Of a stretch of DNA of 32,000 nucleotides, positions 9,502-14,350 are shown in pieces (the first letter of the stretch is position 1; every line of letters begins with the position of its first letter). Location of the stretch: positions 1,110,001 to 1,142,000 of the forward strand of contig NZ_AP013043.1 in the NCBI RefSeq assembly GCF_016592615.1, in the 5' to 3' direction. Position numbers and translations under genes: made by a program. Under the pieces are notes generated by a model. The model made no database searches and had not been told where the DNA came from. It worked only from the letters and a program-made list of their open reading frames with translations. This DNA comes from Isorropodon fossajaponicum endosymbiont JTNG4 (GTDB lineage: Bacteria; Pseudomonadota; Gammaproteobacteria; PS1; Pseudothioglobaceae).

Positions 9502-10932
9502 TTAAGACAACTTATCTTTAAGCAGTTCGTTGACTTGTTTAGGATTGGCCTTGCCAGCAGTAAGTTTCATGATTTGACCAACAAAAAAGCCAAAAATCTT
9601 ATCATTGCCCGATTTAAACTGAGCGACTTGTGGCGCATTATTAGCAATCACCTGTTCTACAATTGCTTCAATTTCACCCATATCAGTCATTTGCTTTAAG
9701 CCTTTAGCTTGAATAATTTCATCTGCATTATCTTCGCTATTCCACATGGCTTTAAACACGTCTTTAGCAGCTTTTCCAGAAATGGTATCATCACTAATAC
9801 GACTGATTAATAGTGACAAGGCTTGCGCAGTAATGGGTGAGTTTTGAATATCAATTTGATGCTTATTCAAAGAGGCTGATAATTCACCCATGACCCAGTT
9901 AGCACATAATTTAGCATTGCTAGCATGATGATCAAGCATGGTCTCAAAATAGTCAGCCAAAGGTTTTTGCAAGGTAAGCACATCTGCATCATAGTCACTC
10001 AAGCCTAATTCTGCAACAAACCTTGCTTTTTTCTGGGTGGGTAATTCTGGTAAAGTTTGCCTTATCCTTTCTAATAATTCATCAGAAATCTCAACAGGCA
10101 GTAAATCTGGGTCTGGAAAATAGCGATAATCATTAGCCTCTTCTTTTGAACGCATAGAGCGCGTTTCATGTTTCACCGAATCATACAAACGAGTTTCTTG
10201 CACAATACTACCGCCCTCTTCAAGAATGTCTTGCTGGCGTTCAACTTCCAAATTAATCGCACGTTCTAAAAATTTAAATGAGTTGATATTTTTTAATTCT
10301 GCACGCGTGCCAAGCTTTTTTTGCCCTTTGGGGCGAATAGAGACATTCGCATCACAACGAAATGAGCCTTCTTGCATATTGCCATCACAAATATCAATAT
10401 ATTGCACCAAGGTGTGAATTTTTTTAGCATAGACCACCGCCTCTTTAGCACTGCGCATGTCAGGCTCGGAGACAATTTCAAGTAAAGGCGTGCCTGCACG
10501 GTTTAAGTCAATTGCAGTATCATCATCAAACATATCATGTATAGACTTTCCTGCATCTTCTTCTAAGTGCGCACGTGTAATGCCAACTACCTTGGTTTGC
10601 TCACCAAGCGTGATTTCAATCTTGCCTTCACCCACAATAGGCCAGTCCATTTGTGAAATTTGGTAGCCTTTTGGTAAATCTGGGTAAAAATAATTCTTTC
10701 TATCAAATATATTACGCTGATTAATATGTGCATTAATCGCCACGCCAAATTTGATTGCCTTATTAACCGCTTCAACATTAAGCACAGGCAAAACACCTGG
10801 TAATCCTAAATCAACAGCGCAAGCCTGTGAATTAGGCTTTTGACCATACTGAGTTGAGGCAGCTGAAAAAATCTTAGATTTAGTGTTTAATTGCGCATGA
10901 ATTTCCAAGCCAATAACTGTTTCCCACTCCAT
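9502..10932 (-). CDS. gatB: Asp-tRNA(Asn)/Glu-tRNA(Gln) amidotransferase subunit B
   Basis: [39 protein letters not shown] and a C-terminal GatB/YqeY domain. It sits 1 nt after gatA. Confidence 0.97.
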
Positions 10933-10933
10933 A

Positions 10934-12376
10934 CTAGCACTCCTGTGGCGTTTTTAAATGCCAGTCAGTTTGTAATTGAAATTGATGCGCGATATTAAGC
11001 AGCTTAGATTCTGACCAGTAGTTGCCAATGAGTTGCAACCCTACTGGTAATTTTTGCGCAAAACCTGCTGGAATACTCATACCTGGCAAGCCTGCCAAGT
11101 TGGCGCTGAGTGTGTAAATATCTGCCAAATACATAGAAACCGGGTCTTTTACTGAGCCTAAATCAAATGCAGTTGTGGGGGAAACTGGCCCCATAATCAC
11201 ATCAACCTGCTCAAATACTTTTTTAAAATCATCACTAATCAAGTGGCGCACTTTCTGCGCTTTAAGATAATAAGCGTCATAATAACCTGCTGATAAAGCA
11301 TAAGTACCAATCATAATACGACGCTTAACCTCTTCACCAAAGCCTTCTGAGCGTGAACGCAAATATAAATCCTCTAAGTTTTTCACATTTTTAGCGCGAT
11401 AGCCATATCTAACACCATCTAGGCGCGATAAATTTGATGAACACTCACAAGGGGCGACAATGTAATAAGCGGGAATAGCATGGGTTGAATTAGGTAATGA
11501 CACCTCTTTAACAATCGCACCCATGGCTTCAAACTCTTTAACAGCAACCATAATATTATCAGCCACTTCATCATCTAAACCAGATGAAAAAAACTCCTTT
11601 GGCAATCCAATGGTTAACCCCTTAATCGAATCATTAAGATGGGTCGTATAATCTGGCACTTTTTGCTCAGCACTGGTTGAGTCTTTGTCGTCAAATCCAG
11701 CCATAACATTTAACACAATAGCTGCATCTTGCGCTGTTTTGGTCATCGGCCCTGCCTGATCAAGACTTGATGCATAAGCAATCATGCCATATCTTGATAT
11801 TCGGCCATAAGTAGGTTTAAGACCTGTAATGCCGCATAAACTTGCAGGCTGACGAATAGAGCCACCTGTATCTGTCCCTGTGGCAAAACAACTTAATCCG
11901 CCCGCAACACTCGCCGCTGAACCGCCTGATGATCCTCCTGGTATTTTTAAACGGTTCCATGGATTTTTAACCGTGCCATAAAACGAGTTTTCATTGCTAG
12001 AACCCATGGCAAATTCATCCATATTAGTCTTGCCCAACATCACTAAATCTGCCTGATTAAGTTTTTGACTCACGGTTGCATCATAAGGCGATACAAAAGT
12101 ATCTAGCATTTTAGAACCTGCTGAGGTTTTAACACCCTTGGTACAAAAGATGTCTTTATGGGCGTATGGAATACCTGTTAATATATTTGCATTACCTGAA
12201 GCAATTTTGTTATCTACTGCTTGGGCTTGAACTAATGCTAATTCGTCAGTTACTGTAATAAAAGCATTCAGGTTTGATTGATCAATGCGATTTAAATAGT
12301 GCTGCGTTAATTCAACACAAGAAAAATCTTTATCTTTAAGGCCTTGTGCCAGTTCAACAATGGTTTTAGTGTGCAT
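10934..12376 (-). CDS. gatA: Glutamyl-tRNA(Gln) amidotransferase subunit A
   Basis: Amidase signature [12 protein letters not shown] plus [14 protein letters not shown] place the start at ATG 12376 (MHTKTIVEL), 1 nt after the gatC stop. The track's longer ORF starts at TTG 12385. Confidence 0.95.
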
Positions 12377-12377
12377 A

Positions 12378-12665
12378 TTATTCAATAACAGTAGGCACTA
12401 AATAATAGCCATTGCTGGTTTTTGGCGCAACTGATTGAAATAATACTGACTGGTCTTGCTCAGCAACAATGTCTTCTCTAAGACGTTGAGACATGTGCAG
12501 TGGGTGTGACATTGGCTCAATACCATCAGTCTCAATATTAGCCAGTTGTTCAACCAAACTAAAAATAGCATTTAAATCTTGCGTATTGTCCTTGAGTTGT
12601 GCTTCATTGAGTGACAAACGCGCGAGATAAGTAATTTGACTTACTTGCTCTTCAGATAATGACAC
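12378..12665 (-). CDS. gatC: Glutamyl-tRNA(Gln) amidotransferase subunit C
   Basis: 95 aa with a GatC-like sequence (ITYLARLSL...EEQ...DLNAI...QL) and position immediately upstream of gatA. Confidence 0.92.
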
Positions 12666-12667
12666 AA

Positions 12668-13264
12668 CTACAGCATTGGAATATTATTAAAAATCCTAAG
12701 CGGCTTAGAAAATGAAGAACGCAAAATGTTTAAATCACGTTGCATCCACTGCATAGACTCTTGCATATTTGCCATATTTTTGTTCATCCGCTCTATATTA
12801 ATGAGCATCGGCCCTAAAGAATCCATTTTTAAGCTTATTTGCGTTAAATCTGCTGCAATAGAATCTAAATTATCAAGTTTGCTGGCAATAATATTCATAT
12901 TTTTATTAACTCGCTGAAAGTCTTTTTGCATATAAGCCACAGAAGTAGTCATTTGCCCAACATTATTTGACAAGCTATTAATACTTCTAACCATAGATGA
13001 CATATTGCCACCCATCTCTGGGTCCATTGAGTTAGCTAAACGCGTCATATCCGAGGTAATTGAATAAATAACAACAAAAAATCCCATGATAATAGCGCCA
13101 AACACTGCAAGCGCCGGTAGGAAAAACTTTTCAAACTTAGTGTCAGTACGTCGATCTGCATGCTTTTCAACACTTTCAAGCATTTTTTCTAAATCAGAAA
13201 TACTAGAAGTAATCATTACTTCATCATCTTCAACTTTAAGGTTCTTTTTATTTTTATTCGTCAT
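12668..13264 (-). CDS. Hypothetical single-pass membrane protein, methionine-rich, coiled-coil-like ectodomain
   Basis: An AGGA Shine-Dalgarno overlaps the aroB stop, 4-5 nt before ATG 13264. The stop is 2 nt before the gatC start. There is one TM segment (FFLPALAVFGAIIMGFFVVIYSI). I count about 20 Met in 198 aa. I recognise no family. Confidence 0.7.
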   Translation of the reverse strand: MTNKNKKNLKVEDDEVMITSSISDLEKMLESVEKHADRRTDTKFEKFFLPALAVFGAIIMGFFVVIYSITSDMTRLANSMDPEMGGNMSSMVRSINSLSNNVGQMTTSVAYMQKDFQRVNKNMNIIASKLDNLDSIAADLTQISLKMDSLGPMLINIERMNKNMANMQESMQWMQRDLNILRSSFSKPLRIFNNIPML

Positions 13265-13270
13265 AGTATC

Positions 13271-14350
13271 CTACTGGCAAAATTCATTAATTACTTGATT
13301 TAAAAGCTGATTTTTATAATGATCACAAACAAAAGCATGGCCCAATTCTTTTAATAAAATCAGGCGAATATTGCCATTAATCACTTTCTTATCAACCAAC
13401 ATTGCTTTCATAAAATCAGAAGCACTAATTTTACCAATAATAGAGATAGGTAAATTGGCTTTTTCTAATAAATCTTGAACTTGGGCGACTTGATTGCTGG
13501 ACAAATACCCCTCAAGTTGAGATAGTTTTACTGCCATTAGCATGCCCACTGAAATTGCCTCACCATGCAAAAAAGTGCCATAACCAAGTGTATTTTCAAT
13601 CGCATGGCCAAAAGTGTGCCCGAAGTTCAACAAAGCACGCCTGCCCACTTCTAACTCATCTTGGGCAACAATATTGGCTTTATGCTGGCAAGACTGGTAA
13701 ATTATTTCAGCCATTAAAAGCTTGTTTCTATCCATTAAATCTTTAATGTTTTCTTTCAAAAAATTAAAGAAGTTTGAATGACCTAATAAACCATATTTAA
13801 TCACCTCAGCCATACCTGCTGAGTATTGCTGATTACCCAAAGTATCAAGTGTATCTATATCAATCAGTACGCATTTTGGCTGATGAAAAGCCCCAATCAT
13901 GTTCTTACCAAGTACGTGATTAACACCTGTTTTCCCACCCACGCTAGAATCGACTTGGGACAATAACGTGGTGGGAATTTGAATAAAATTAACGCCACGC
14001 TGATAGCTAGCTGCTGCAAATCCAGTCATATCACCCACCACACCACCACCAAGGGCAATTAATGTGCAACTACGATCAAATCTATTCTCAAGCAGTGCAC
14101 TGAAAATACAATTAAGCGTCTCAAGTGTCTTATATTTTTCACCATCTGGTAAAACCACTTGTGCAAGTTCAAACGATGAAAGCAAATTTTGCACCTTCTC
14201 AAGATACAAGGGTGCCACTGTTGTATTAGTAACAATCATGACTTGCTTGCCACTAATATGTTTTGTTAATAACTCACCTTCTGACAATAAATCTTGACCA
14301 GTATATATAGGGTAAGATTTTTCTTGCAAATCAAGGTTAAGTGTTTTCAT
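13271..14350 (-). CDS. aroB: 3-dehydroquinate synthase
   Basis: LIALGGGVVGDMTGFAAASYQRGVNFIQIPTTLLSQVDSSVGGKTG and HTFGHAIE motifs. Length 359 aa. Its ATG directly abuts the ileS stop. Confidence 0.96.
   Translation of the reverse strand: MKTLNLDLQEKSYPIYTGQDLLSEGELLTKHISGKQVMIVTNTTVAPLYLEKVQNLLSSFELAQVVLPDGEKYKTLETLNCIFSALLENRFDRSCTLIALGGGVVGDMTGFAAASYQRGVNFIQIPTTLLSQVDSSVGGKTGVNHVLGKNMIGAFHQPKCVLIDIDTLDTLGNQQYSAGMAEVIKYGLLGHSNFFNFLKENIKDLMDRNKLLMAEIIYQSCQHKANIVAQDELEVGRRALLNFGHTFGHAIENTLGYGTFLHGEAISVGMLMAVKLSQLEGYLSSNQVAQVQDLLEKANLPISIIGKISASDFMKAMLVDKKVINGNIRLILLKELGHAFVCDHYKNQLLNQVINEFCQ

Follow-up and report, generated by a model that had tools for sequence, protein, structure and literature searches.

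A methionine-rich coiled-coil membrane protein of SUP05 bacteria and its tentative link to sulfur globules

ORF X, an open reading frame from a clam symbiont that resembles Ruthia and belongs to the SUP05 clade, encodes a methionine-rich coiled-coil protein that may anchor periplasmic sulfur globules to the membrane, or organise them, in sulfur oxidisers that store sulfur, a reading to which we assign a probability of about 0.4 and which draws on gene context, all of it from relatives. The gene lies within a 32,000-nucleotide stretch of DNA (the window). Because the protein family is distributed among sulfur oxidisers and its genes adjoin globule-coat genes in distant relatives, we regard ORF X as a candidate component of the machinery for sulfur storage. 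Globules of sulfur have long been known as bacterial inclusions, and to our knowledge the secreted coat proteins SgpA-D are their only components described so far. The occurrence of family members beside coat genes in lineages as distant as Magnetococcales and Gammaproteobacteria provides a testable candidate for the link between globule and cell. SUP05 bacteria are major players in the sulfur and carbon cycling of oxygen-minimum zones, which lends ecological relevance to components of sulfur storage.

The reading frame is complete, beginning at an ATG and extending through 198 codons to a stop, and its features are listed in Table 1. A first-pass annotation had reported the frame, its spacing to both neighbours and an AGGA sequence over the aroB stop, and this description stood throughout apart from the orientation, which we correct to the minus strand: 6 nt separate the aroB stop codon (13271-13273) from the ORF X ATG (13262-13264), and gatC begins at a GTG located 2 nt past the ORF X stop. 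The aroB/ORF X junction contains no terminator-like site, which together with the direct adjacency of the two genes suggests that they are probably co-transcribed. Scans for promoters and terminators yielded none above shuffled expectation. Two antisense reading frames, 12726-12917 (+) and 13086-13298 (+), as well as cluster c1 of the related loci, were judged to be shadow ORFs of the periodic coding sequence.

Table 1. Positions in the window of ORF X, its neighbours and the segments of the encoded protein
Feature	Position	Strand	Description
ORF X	12668..13264	-	Predicted bitopic inner-membrane protein with methionine-rich coiled coil; 105 SUP05 homologues
Shine-Dalgarno-like AGGA	13269..13272	-	Overlaps aroB stop; 4 nt before ORF X ATG; minus strand TAGGATACTATG
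aroB (3-dehydroquinate synthase)	13271..14350	-	Directly upstream of ORF X; Pfam DHQ_synthase on orthologous neighbours
gatC	12378..12665	-	Directly downstream of ORF X; followed by gatA (10934-12385) and gatB (9502-10932)
Predicted cytoplasmic N-terminal region, residues 1-46	13127..13264	-	Lys-rich start; conserved amphipathic helix VMITSSISDLEKMLExVE; basic RRTDTKFEK; from conservation in SUP05-level alignment A1 and AlphaFold2 helix 22-36
Predicted TM helix, residues 47-69 (FFLPALAVFGAIIMGFFVVIYSI)	13058..13126	-	P50, F55, F63 and Y67 invariant or nearly so
Predicted juxtamembrane periplasmic signature, residues 70-83 (TSDMTRLANSMDPE)	13016..13057	-	Family motif (S/L)T.DM..LA..MDP.M
Predicted coiled-coil segment 1, residues 84-147	12824..13015	-	About nine unbroken heptads; from heptad layout and AlphaFold2 helix
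Predicted hinge or register shift, residues 148-152 (DSLGP)	12809..12823	-	Pro152 nearly invariant
Predicted coiled-coil segment 2, "methionine zipper", residues 153-185	12710..12808	-	Met at nearly every a/d position
C-terminal tail, residues 186-198 (SKPLRIFNNIPML)	12671..12709	-	Hydrophobic/aromatic; family consensus RPMSFMNSFMPW-COOH; P188 and P196 invariant

Selection on ORF X is strong. Comparisons with Ruthia magnifica and Vesicomyosocius okutanii gave dN/dS values of 0.098-0.101, which equal those of aroB (0.10-0.12) and lie below those of gatC (0.21-0.28), and the relaxed constraint (dN/dS near 1) that the first-pass annotation had named as an argument against its proposal is not what we found. 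A dN/dS of about 0.1 combined with wide conservation rules out a spurious or relaxed reading frame, and from these comparisons ORF X is a real gene under strong purifying selection. The order ileS-aroB-X-gatCA is kept across SUP05, including clam symbionts, free-living Thioglobus and Bathymodiolus symbionts, and the gene is retained in symbiont genomes reduced to 1.0-1.2 Mb.

The composition of the encoded protein is unusual. Methionine accounts for 20 of the 198 residues (10.1%), as had been estimated from the sequence, and for 16 of the 129 residues past the single TM helix (12.4%), which compares with an average of 2.6% among 29 long ORFs of the window (binomial P = 3.7e-7). The ectodomain contains 12.4% Ser and 12.4% Asn, with zero Cys and zero His. 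The methionine-rich strings SMDPEMGGNMSSM and ERMNKNMANMQESMQWMQ and the internal repeat QRVNKNMNII/ERMNKNMANM, all noted at first pass, are present in ORF X, and the heptad-like pattern noted with them corresponds to a hydrophobic period of 3.45-3.5 residues, so that the earlier picture of a single-pass membrane protein with a methionine-rich heptad ectodomain holds. The AlphaFold2 monomer contains a helix at residues 22-36 in the head, a second at 43-78 and one long helix at 85-194, with a pTM of 0.24, and is silent on oligomeric state. Positively charged residues (K+R) average 3.5 before the TM helix vs 1.3 after it, a bias found in 99% of 394 family members. The N-terminal region ranges from 15 to 116 residues among family members, and some relatives carry N-terminal fusions to a TIR domain (P0192) or to a Lys/Ala histone-H1-like region (P0184), which indicates that the N-terminus is cytoplasmic. 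ORF X is thus predicted to be a type-II (N-in, C-out) inner-membrane protein.

Conservation is distributed along the whole chain. Within the juxtamembrane signature, T70, D72, M73 and L76 are invariant and D81 nearly so in alignment A1, and the signature is kept in the wider family (alignments A2 and A3). The core of segment 1 consists of M88, M91, I95, L98, V102, M105, V109, M112, F116, V119, M123, I126, L130, L133, L140 and M147, and that of segment 2 of M153, (I/M)157, M160, M164, M167, M171 and M174, followed by L178, L181 and F185. Family-wide, Met occupies positions 153, 160, 167 and 174 in 77-94% of sequences, and 365 of 395 members end in W, L or F. Across 394 members the heptad core columns are approximately 100% M/L/I/V/F, with Met making up 45% of M+L+I+V, and the median ectodomain Met content is 14.4% in genomes of widely differing G+C. 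At many core positions Met is exchanged with Leu, Ile or Val, and position 73, for example, is 53% Met and 47% Val/Ile. This free exchange and the placement in the heptad core suggest that the methionines behave as a hydrophobic seam, not as a fixed set of ligands. The family thereby defines a sequence device, a heptad coiled coil with a core that is nearly half methionine.

The first-pass annotation could place ORF X in no family, which is right for named or curated families and wrong in a wider sense, since a family of more than 1,600 clusters exists. A phmmer search against 1.8 billion representatives returned 114 matches of the same length and with the same motifs, and a profile search for the family reached 1,662 sequence clusters. 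The relatives outside SUP05 are about 30% identical to the SUP05 protein, and hhalign joins SUP05 and distant members with a probability of 100% (E = 1e-40) in an alignment of 160 columns that begins at the cytoplasmic helix and runs through to the C-terminus. A genome scan based on 12 close sequences produced 219 matches, the best 80 of which fall in Magnetococcales, Chromatiaceae/Chromatiales, Sedimenticolaceae, Thiotrichales/Parabeggiatoa, Ectothiorhodospiraceae, Rhodobium and one Hyphomicrobiales MAG, along with many MAGs named only to class or phylum. We take the named carrier groups to be sulfur oxidisers that deposit sulfur globules. Among the top 120 matches of either profile search there was no member from Allochromatium vinosum, and the A. 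vinosum globule proteins described in PMC10386293 include no named member of the family. Homologues are not always situated between aroB and gatC, as the wider family occupies quite different contexts and only SUP05 and one related lineage have the aroB-X-gatC order. That restriction removes all weight from the earlier analogy with the gene slot of damX, which in any case follows aroK-aroB and precedes dam, in contrast to the ileS-aroB-X-gatCAB order found here without aroK or dam.

We compared ORF X with known families and found none to which it belongs. Pfam and NCBIfam scans of ORF X yielded nothing above a family cut-off, and the same scans of ORF X together with ten distant relatives yielded only sub-threshold coiled-coil noise (DUF948, DUF1664, BLOC1_2, SpiroCoCo, IcmG, SMC). 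A PDB profile search matched generic coiled coils only, and a Foldseek search of the AlphaFold2 model against PDB gave a best E-value of 6, a lone long helix being uninformative. As the first-pass annotation had observed, there is no SPOR-like C-terminus: PF05036 did not match even at E <= 10, the chain ends in a 13-residue hydrophobic tail, and ORF X is therefore not DamX. Labels given in other sources fared no better. The chemoreceptor (MCP) label is contradicted by the lack of PF00015 and HAMP matches, with PDB matches to MCPs representing generic coiled coil (E about 5e-4 over 55-90 residues); the FtsB/DivIC label in some JGI records has no domain match behind it, and ORF X is twice the approximately 100-aa length of those proteins and has a 46-residue cytoplasmic region; and the domain that defines "inclusion membrane protein A" is absent. 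Pfam SGP (PF17228) did not match ORF X and was found solely in neighbour genes of relatives. On DUF948 (PF06103, cut-off 37.2 bits), ORF X scored 13.2 bits and the best relative tested 30.8 bits; a PF06103 label, precomputed and mostly weak, is attached to many relatives, and some databases name relatives DUF948 or YoxC. This likeness is a weak profile similarity over the TM helix and the first ~80 residues, seen in relatives of ORF X, which suggests that a distant kinship with DUF948 is possible. Judged by profile comparison, ORF X is a member of a large unnamed family on the fringe of DUF948/YoxC.

The gene context of relatives provides the proposed link to sulfur globules. In Magnetococcus marinus MC-1, a same-strand cluster encodes, in order, an RND pump, secreted Gly/Tyr/Arg/Trp-rich proteins along with a DUF4412-like protein, two SGP-like proteins, a ParA-like protein and finally Mmc1_3257, which is a family member, and one of the SGP genes scores 64.9 bits on Pfam SGP (cut-off 26.7). 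Three separate MAGs of Gammaproteobacteria also have Pfam SGP matches above the cut-off beside the family gene (L009, 37.4 bits; L056, 44.7 bits; L069, 27.0 bits), and in three further loci (L005, L006, L093) SGP-like ORFs flank the family gene on both sides (signal peptide ...LPLQSANAWGGGGPWGG..GYGYPYYGG). Two independent detectors, jackhmmer and a composition rule, identified SGP-like ORFs in 33-34 of approximately 90 loci, with none in SUP05 loci. The probability that linkage in five independent lineages arose by chance is roughly 2e-5, a rough estimate that assumes that 4 of every 3,500 genes are sgp genes, that 12 genes count as neighbours and that there are 25 lineages. Context is varied, as the family gene follows nirDLGH-nirJ in one gammaproteobacterial group and other loci contain no sulfur gene. 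Pfam scans of the secreted low-complexity neighbours c6, c11, c13, c19 and c22 found nothing.

The coat proteins share features with ORF X. SgpA/B/C (PF17228) and SgpD are extracytoplasmic and have been proposed to be structural, their genes share clusters with ORF X relatives in Magnetococcus and several gammaproteobacteria, and SgpD is likewise predicted to form a coiled coil. The sgpD gene of A. vinosum adjoins a gene for an RND-type, hydrophobe/amphiphile exporter (PMC10386293), which seems to echo the RND pump of the family clusters. Unlike the SGPs, ORF X has no cleavable signal peptide and instead has its N-terminal TM anchor behind a 46-residue cytoplasmic head, is rich in Met/Asn/Ser whereas the SGPs are rich in Gly/Tyr/Trp, and is not known from any globule proteome. 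The SUP05 isolate Ca. Thioglobus autotrophicus has periplasmic sulfur globules and four putative sgp genes (PMC6509183).

A ParA-like gene accompanies many family members. Among the best 80 of the 219 matches, 26 loci, mostly of Magnetococcales and including L050, L053, L056, L063, L066 and L071, have such a gene on the same strand, as the next gene upstream or close to it, and it is also found upstream in MC-1 (L087), Sedimenticola selenatireducens (L089) and a MAG labelled Nitrospirae (L092). The position directly downstream of a small orphan ParA-like gene, which the family gene occupies in many relatives, is the usual one for a cargo adaptor, as for McdB of carboxysomes and TlpT/PpfA of chemoreceptor arrays, and McdB, like the ORF X family, has a coiled coil and ends in an invariant aromatic residue. 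ORF X differs from these adaptors in that it is integral to the membrane and the bulk of the protein lies outside the cytoplasm, and we know of no ParA cargo that is periplasmic. The RND pump of the family clusters is divergent, with multidrug-type models outscoring CusA/CzcA and all scores below cut-off, and this exporter has a long cytoplasmic tail that ends in a conserved RRGIRLK. Neither SGP, ParA-like nor RND genes occur in the 32-kb window or in SUP05 loci.

In ORF X, the 46-residue cytoplasmic head with its amphipathic helix is joined through the TM helix to ~130 residues predicted to extend into the periplasm as two heptad coils of ~64 and ~33 residues, with a conserved Gly-Pro hinge between them. 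Met dominates the buried or amphipathic face of both coil segments, and the hydrophobic/aromatic tail ends the chain. In the globule anchor proposed from gene context, the Met-lined face, being flexible and polarisable, could together with the aromatic tail contact the hydrophobic sulfur core or its coat of Gly/Tyr/Trp-rich SGPs. The TM helix would tether the globule to the cytoplasmic membrane, with the cytoplasmic helix as the cell's handle on it, and in many relatives the upstream orphan ParA-like ATPase, whose linkage is suggestive of active globule positioning, might use this handle in spacing or partitioning globules. The SUP05 gene would have been captured into the housekeeping ileS-aroB-X-gatCAB operon and expressed constitutively. 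Localisation at globules, binding to sulfur or SGPs and interaction with ParA are features that we infer for the family, as is the carry-over of function from relatives of about 30% identity to the SUP05 protein. Against a globule role in SUP05, the neighbours there are housekeeping genes, and the thiotrophic symbionts of Bathymodiolus, which keep ORF X, reportedly do not accumulate sulfur. We also know of no protein that binds elemental sulfur via methionine.

A bolder version, which we consider improbable, is that the family constitutes the transmembrane adaptor of an unrecognised organelle-positioning system, in which the Met zipper would grip globule sulfur or the SGP coat while the ParA-like ATPase moves the cytoplasmic helix on the nucleoid. 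The same ATPase might also act on the RND exporter with the RRGIRLK tail, and the protein of SUP05 and clam symbionts would be a stripped-down, minimal globule anchor within a housekeeping operon. If true, this would be the first ParA-type system to act across the inner membrane on extracytoplasmic cargo, and the zipper would be the first protein to bind zero-valent sulfur through methionine.

Other functions would account for part of this evidence. One alternative with no connection to sulfur, unlikely in our estimation, is a generic strut or tether of the envelope. It would be an oligomeric coil of the inner membrane, up to ~15 nm when extended, that crosses the periplasm like an inverted Lpp or a TolA-type connector and sets or senses spacing, with its hydrophobic/aromatic tail docked into peptidoglycan, the outer membrane or one of its proteins. 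The long unbroken heptads are consistent with a strut, as is the fact that the PDB matches of the ectodomain are all coiled coils (Lpp at E = 0.02-0.07, trimeric autotransporter stalks, viral fusion cores and designed bundles); the C-terminal W, F or L is also found in outer-membrane proteins, and the place of the gene in a housekeeping operon and its retention in reduced genomes would suit a general envelope function. Lpp and TolA domain II are similarly periplasmic heptad coils with Asn/Ser/Asp/Gln at surface positions, and like such connectors ORF X could span a large part of the periplasm. Unlike Lpp, however, ORF X would be anchored by an inner-membrane TM helix instead of an outer-membrane lipid, has neither a lipobox nor a C-terminal Lys for peptidoglycan, and is 2-3 times longer with a core dominated by Met. 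A plain structural coil has no evident need for a core of 45% Met, and a strut leaves unexplained both the restriction to sulfur-oxidiser lineages and the recurrent adjacency of SGP and ParA-like genes. Division or cell organisation is a further candidate, and one that we think highly unlikely: a factor of the DUF948/FacZ, FtsB or DamX type, possibly with a ParA/MinD-like ATPase, would help to place or stabilise the division machinery. In its favour are the sub-threshold DUF948 scores and precomputed labels of relatives, the ParA/MinD-type genes adjacent in relatives, the control of division-site placement by S. aureus FacZ, the sole characterised DUF948 protein (PMC10914604), and the division of Ca. 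T. autotrophicus without FtsZ (PMC6509183). Proteins of DUF948/COG4768 YoxC, FacZ among them, resemble ORF X in size and in layout, with a TM helix at the N-terminus and an oligomeric coiled coil after it. The topologies are opposite, however, with FacZ being N-out with a cytoplasmic coil (PMC10914604) and ORF X predicted to be N-in with a periplasmic coil, and the FacZ tail is basic, disordered and binds GpsB, whereas ORF X has a Met zipper and an aromatic C-terminus. The two proteins also come from different phyla and different gene contexts, ORF X itself scores low on DUF948 with no DivIC/FtsB or SPOR match, and a division role would not explain the restricted distribution or the SGP linkage.

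The methionines themselves had led the first-pass annotation to consider a metal or redox role, and both forms of this idea lose ground on gene context and on the position of Met in the coil core. A periplasmic Cu(I)/Ag(I) binder or copper buffer, with MxxM/MxxxM arrays on one helix face as in CusF, CusB, PcoE, SilE, CopC and Ctr1-type proteins, would fit the dense MxxM/MxxxM spacing, the Met content of at least 90% at several positions, the frequent His beside Met in non-SUP05 members (MGEHM; median of 3 His per ectodomain), an L093 neighbour with an LTXXQ domain and a weak Metal_resist match, and the RND pump encoded in the clusters. In SRP54/Ffh (M-domain), CusF, PcoE, SilE and CueO, clustered Met on one helix face similarly forms a flexible hydrophobic or soft-ligand surface, but these proteins have no sequence or fold match to ORF X, in which Met keeps a strict a/d register and is partly exchangeable with L/I/V. 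Copper and silver genes lie beside none of the approximately 90 loci, HMA, multicopper-oxidase, CopC/D, CusF, cop, cus, pco and sil genes occur in none of the annotated loci, the pump is nearer to multidrug-type models, no metal-binding family matches, and the SUP05 ectodomain is devoid of His and Cys, which together make a copper function a faint prospect. Fainter again is a sacrificial oxidant sink, in which Met exposed at the surface would take up reactive oxygen, chlorine or sulfur species in the periplasm, and a methionine sulfoxide reductase of the same compartment would then restore it. MrpX, a Met-rich peptide associated with YedY/MsrP in perchlorate reducers, serves as the model. The extreme Met content of the periplasmic domain and the life of carriers at oxic-sulfidic interfaces are in keeping with it, as is the precedent of a methionine-rich peptide mentioned in PMC5358917. 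The Met residues of ORF X are, however, periodic core residues and not scattered over the surface, the TM, hinge and C-terminal motifs are conserved far beyond what a sink would need, MsrP/MsrQ-type genes occur in none of the annotated neighbourhoods, and methionine-sulfoxide-reductase genes lie beside none of the ~90 loci.

Literature searches on Rmag_0342, Mmc1_3257, A1AW11, A5CX63 and other members found no paper, and a search joining sulfur globule with methionine-rich returned only an unrelated one. Across the more than 1,600 clusters, labels that include hypothetical, MCP, FtsB, YoxC and IncA need correction. Some genomes encode two paralogues of the family, the functions of which may have diverged.

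X, the 198-aa ORF between aroB and gatC, exists as the first-pass annotation described it, spacings included, with the single correction that it lies on the minus strand, and the methionine-rich strings and internal repeat quoted there are all present. The minus strand at the aroB/X junction reads TAGGATACTATG, which places the aroB stop codon 6 nt from the ATG, with an AGGA overlapping that stop. A terminator scan found no terminator-like site between X and its neighbours, and the best sites in a promoter scan lie 5' of ileS, with promoter and terminator scores not above shuffled expectation. We infer that X is co-transcribed with its neighbours. The ileS-aroB-X-gatCAB block is very compact, as is typical of a reduced genome: ileS and aroB abut with a gap of 0, and gatC overlaps gatA, which is called from a TTG start, by 8 nt. 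Two plus-strand ORFs lie antisense over X, and antisense ORFs over the genes of X and its relatives (the family) recur in many loci of other genomes (ORF cluster c1), spanning several hundred codons in relatives. They are probably shadow ORFs of a periodic, stop-poor coding sequence that could mislead gene callers.

Features of X and its flanks (window positions for DNA features; residue numbers of X for protein features)
Feature	Position	Strand	Detail
X	12668-13264	-	ATG start, 198 aa (ORF call)
aroB stop codon	13271-13273	-	6 nt from X ATG
AGGA		-	overlaps aroB stop, 4 nt 5' of X ATG
gatC start (GTG)	12665	-	2 nt past X stop
gatC/gatA overlap	12378-12385		8 nt
ileS/aroB junction	14350/14351		gap 0
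Antisense ORF	12726-12917	+	over X
Antisense ORF	13086-13298	+	over X
Cytoplasmic region	residues 1-46		Lys-rich start; conserved amphipathic helix VMITSSISDLEKMLE
TM helix	residues 47-69		invariant P50, F55, F63, Y67
Juxtamembrane signature	residues 70-83		invariant T.DM..LA..MDP.M
Heptad segment 1	residues 84-147		about nine heptads, uninterrupted
Gly-Pro hinge			between heptad segments; P152 nearly invariant
Heptad segment 2	residues 153-185		four to five heptads, Met at almost every a/d position
C-terminal tail	last 13 residues		SKPLRIFNNIPML; conserved, P188 and P196 invariant

The closest proteins to X, all hypothetical, are 88-92% identical and belong to Candidatus Ruthia endofausta, R. 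magnifica (Rmag_0342) and Vesicomyosocius okutanii, followed by those of Ca. Thioglobus and the thiotrophic symbionts of Bathymodiolus. These matches assign the window to a vesicomyid-clam symbiont within the SUP05 clade. The order ileS-aroB-X-gatC-gatA is the same in R. magnifica, V. okutanii, free-living Thioglobus, the Bathymodiolus thermophilus symbiont and another SUP05-like genome, and it is kept in a much more distant relative with 45% identical aroB and 43% identical gatC. Homologues occupy the aroB-gatC slot in SUP05 genomes and this one distant relative; elsewhere the family has other contexts. By the Nei-Gojobori method, dN/dS of X is 0.10 against each of two clam symbionts and 0.08 against Thioglobus, while clam-symbiont pairs give 0.10-0.12 for aroB and 0.21-0.28 for gatC. 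The value for X resembles that of aroB and lies below that of gatC. X is conserved and strongly constrained, which contradicts the possibility, raised earlier, of an unconserved ORF with dN/dS near 1. In the B. thermophilus symbiont, gatA and gatB are separated by an AAA_21/AAA_15 ATPase gene (loci L081:7350-8848 and L082:7349-8308); in L081 a DUF3226 gene and a transposase come next. The insert resembles a mobile or defence-type element that has entered an otherwise conserved block.

Methionine accounts for 20 of the 198 residues of X (10.1%) and 16 of the 129 that follow the TM helix (12.4%), against a mean of 2.6% across the 29 long ORFs of the window (binomial P = 3.7e-7 for the excess). 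The ectodomain contains 12.4% Ser, 12.4% Asn and neither Cys nor His. Its hydrophobic residues recur with a period of 3.45-3.5 residues in two heptad segments, which bears out the heptad-like pattern claimed at first reading. We named the second segment, with Met at a/d positions M153, M/I157, M160, M164, M167, M171 and M174, the methionine zipper. AlphaFold2, run with 31 sequences, modelled the cytoplasmic helix at residues 22-36 and a single long helix at 85-194 (pLDDT 76-87); the pTM of 0.24 is as would be expected for a lone protomer of an oligomer.

Scans of X against Pfam and NCBIfam returned only sub-threshold coiled-coil matches (DUF948, 13.2 bits; cut-off 37.2) and no SPOR, MCP or DivIC domain, in agreement with the earlier statement that a SPOR-like C-terminus is missing. 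A PDB profile search returned generic coiled coils only (designed bundles, paramyxovirus phosphoprotein, spike HR1, MCP and Lpp), and Foldseek found no match to the X model. An exhaustive phmmer search of 1.84 billion representatives identified 114 proteins, many of them ~30% identical to X yet matching end-to-end, and hhalign joined the SUP05 and distant alignments with a probability of 100% (E = 1e-40, 160 columns). Although no curated family fits, in line with the first-pass annotation, which could not place X in any family, a large unnamed one exists, comprising 1,662 sequence clusters by profile search. Its members share a cytoplasmic motif (L..LE..L..F...FE.S.RRWE), a TM helix motif (VYP.L..F..L..GF.LIYSLT), a juxtamembrane motif (DM..LA..MDP.M..NM), Met-rich heptads in variable number, a further motif (L.PML.NM..MN) and the C-terminus RPMSFMNSFMPW. 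The matches listed are named hypothetical or carry coiled-coil-driven names (MCP, YoxC/DUF948, FtsB, TolA-binding), and none of them is from A. vinosum; paralogues occur in some genomes. We conclude that X is a bitopic membrane protein with a coiled coil, at the margin of DUF948. We found no published paper on any family member, and neither the methionine-zipper core nor the association with sulfur globules and a ParA-like ATPase appears to have been described so far.

Across 394-395 members, median ectodomain Met content is 14.4%, Met makes up 45% of M+L+I+V, 99% of proteins are Cys-free and 365 proteins end in W, L or F. Because core columns are ~100% M/L/I/V/F, with Met at 74-98% in eight of them and exchanged freely with aliphatics at others, Met behaves in these alignments as a selected hydrophobic-seam residue and not a fixed ligand. 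K+R averages 3.5 in the 15 residues ahead of the TM helix and 1.3 behind it, a bias present in 99% of members. In one distant member (P0192), a TIR domain (85 bits) precedes the TM helix and Met-rich coil, and another (P0184) begins with ~170 residues of Lys/Ala histone-H1-like repeats. Based on the charge bias and these N-terminal fusions, the N-terminus is predicted to be cytoplasmic and the Met-rich coil periplasmic. The fusions also hint at defence-related and nucleoid-binding variants of the family.

One genome was scanned per species, which yielded 219 relatives. About half of the 80 listed are Magnetococcales; the others include Chromatiaceae/Chromatiales, Sedimenticolaceae, Thiotrichales (including Parabeggiatoa), Ectothiorhodospiraceae, Rhodobium orientis, a single MAG of Hyphomicrobiales and many further MAGs whose names go no deeper than class or phylum. 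The named groups are largely sulfur oxidisers with sulfur-globule deposition. Within SUP05, Ca. Thioglobus autotrophicus deposits sulfur globules in the periplasm and has four putative sgp genes (PMC6509183). When ORFs were called in all ~90 loci and clustered, three partners recurred. One is a small orphan ParA-like ATPase that matches CbiA/MipZ (125-136 bits on NCBIfam ParA_partition; cut-off 180); in 26 loci its gene shares the strand of the family gene and lies directly or nearly directly 5' of it, and it is likewise upstream in Sedimenticola selenatireducens and a Nitrospirae-labelled MAG, sometimes with a DUF302 or TPR protein gene between them. Another is a divergent AcrB-type RND pump, with membrane-fusion protein and DUF4412-like lipoprotein genes farther upstream. 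The remaining partner is sulfur-globule protein (SGP) genes. In M. marinus MC-1, nine genes on one strand form a cluster that runs from the RND pump to the family member Mmc1_3257. Between these lie, in order, three secreted proteins rich in Gly/Tyr/Arg/Trp with a DUF4412-like protein interspersed, a pair of SGP-like genes and the ParA-like gene; the 125-aa SGP scores 64.9 bits on Pfam SGP (cut-off 26.7). Three separate gammaproteobacterial MAGs also have a neighbour of the family gene that passes the Pfam SGP cut-off (37.4, 44.7 and 27.0 bits), and in a fourth lineage (L005, L006, L093) the ORFs on either side of the gene are unmistakably SGP-like. Both jackhmmer and an independent composition rule flagged SGP-like ORFs in 33-34 of the ~90 loci and none in SUP05 loci, which have no SGP, ParA or RND neighbour. 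From rough assumed parameters, chance SGP adjacency in five independent lineages has P ~2e-5. The linkage of SGP genes and RND pump resembles that in A. vinosum, where sgpD adjoins a hydrophobe/amphiphile exporter gene (PMC10386293). Context is heterogeneous, and many loci contain nothing sulfur-related.

The most economical reading, to which we give a probability of roughly 40%, makes the family a membrane-anchored part of the sulfur-globule apparatus. What the data show is the architecture, the predicted topology, the conservation and the gene linkage; localisation, binding and coupling to ParA are inferred. The periplasmic, Met-lined amphipathic coiled coil and aromatic tail would suit a hydrophobic sulfur surface or an aromatic-rich SGP coat, the TM helix would tie the complex to the inner membrane, and in many lineages the ParA-like ATPase encoded next to the family gene may engage the conserved cytoplasmic helix. 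In SUP05 the gene would have moved into a housekeeping operon, a position consistent with a constitutive need for it in obligate thiotrophs and with its being kept as genomes shrank; the function would be extended to X from relatives that are ~30% identical. The methionine zipper and the globule/ParA-like link make an old question, how globules are anchored and organised, directly testable.

A generic strut from inner to outer membrane would match the Lpp-like character of the sequence but fits neither the distribution nor the gene linkage of the family, and we consider it unlikely. Binding of Cu(I)/Ag(I) is chemically plausible for Met arrays, which would also suit an oxidant sink, and the first-pass annotation had called a metal, redox or envelope role conceivable. 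Neither function has contextual support and the Met residues are core positions exchangeable with L/I/V; metal binding and an oxidant sink both appear very improbable. A division role of the FacZ or FtsB type is similarly improbable, being at odds with the predicted topology: FacZ of S. aureus, the sole characterised DUF948 protein, has the reverse orientation (PMC10914604).

Several neighbourhoods contain further recurrent genes. In one gammaproteobacterial group (L027, L057, L078, L079 and L074), the heme d1 genes nirDLGH-nirJ (NirJ, 639.7 bits) immediately precede the family gene, and genes for a charged, secreted coiled-coil protein (c15) and a radical-SAM protein lie downstream, a context unrelated to sulfur globules. 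The RND pumps of cluster c3 (L050:52-4053, L087:66-3959, L053:405-4262 and 10 other loci), which lie 5' of the ParA-like and family genes, carry a 250-300-residue low-complexity cytoplasmic C-terminal extension ending in a conserved RRGIRLK, in Magnetococcales and Gammaproteobacteria alike; it could dock onto or stimulate the ParA-like ATPase. Between pump and SGP genes lie secreted, extremely low-complexity proteins rich in Gly/Tyr/Arg/Trp/Pro/Asp (MC-1, L087:3973-7500; Magnetococcales clusters c6, c11, c13, c19 and c22; S. selenatireducens, L089:7574-8488; L071:2482-4361). In some of them GYGREGYGERS is repeated in tandem. None matches a Pfam family, and they are possible additional globule-envelope proteins. 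At L037:2803-4158, the gene immediately 3' of the family gene encodes a class-II DAHP synthase (PF01474, 671.7 bits), and the same holds in L017, L030, L031, L040, L044 and L045, seven Magnetococcales loci in all. Shikimate-pathway genes therefore adjoin the family gene in two very distant lineages, with aroB upstream in SUP05, and SGP coat proteins are Tyr/Trp-rich; the adjacency may be coincidence or co-regulation. One Magnetococcales sub-lineage has, just 3' of the family gene, another ParA/MinD-like gene that is longer than the first (299 aa; AAA_31/CbiA; L029:5972-6871; also L011, L018 and L024).
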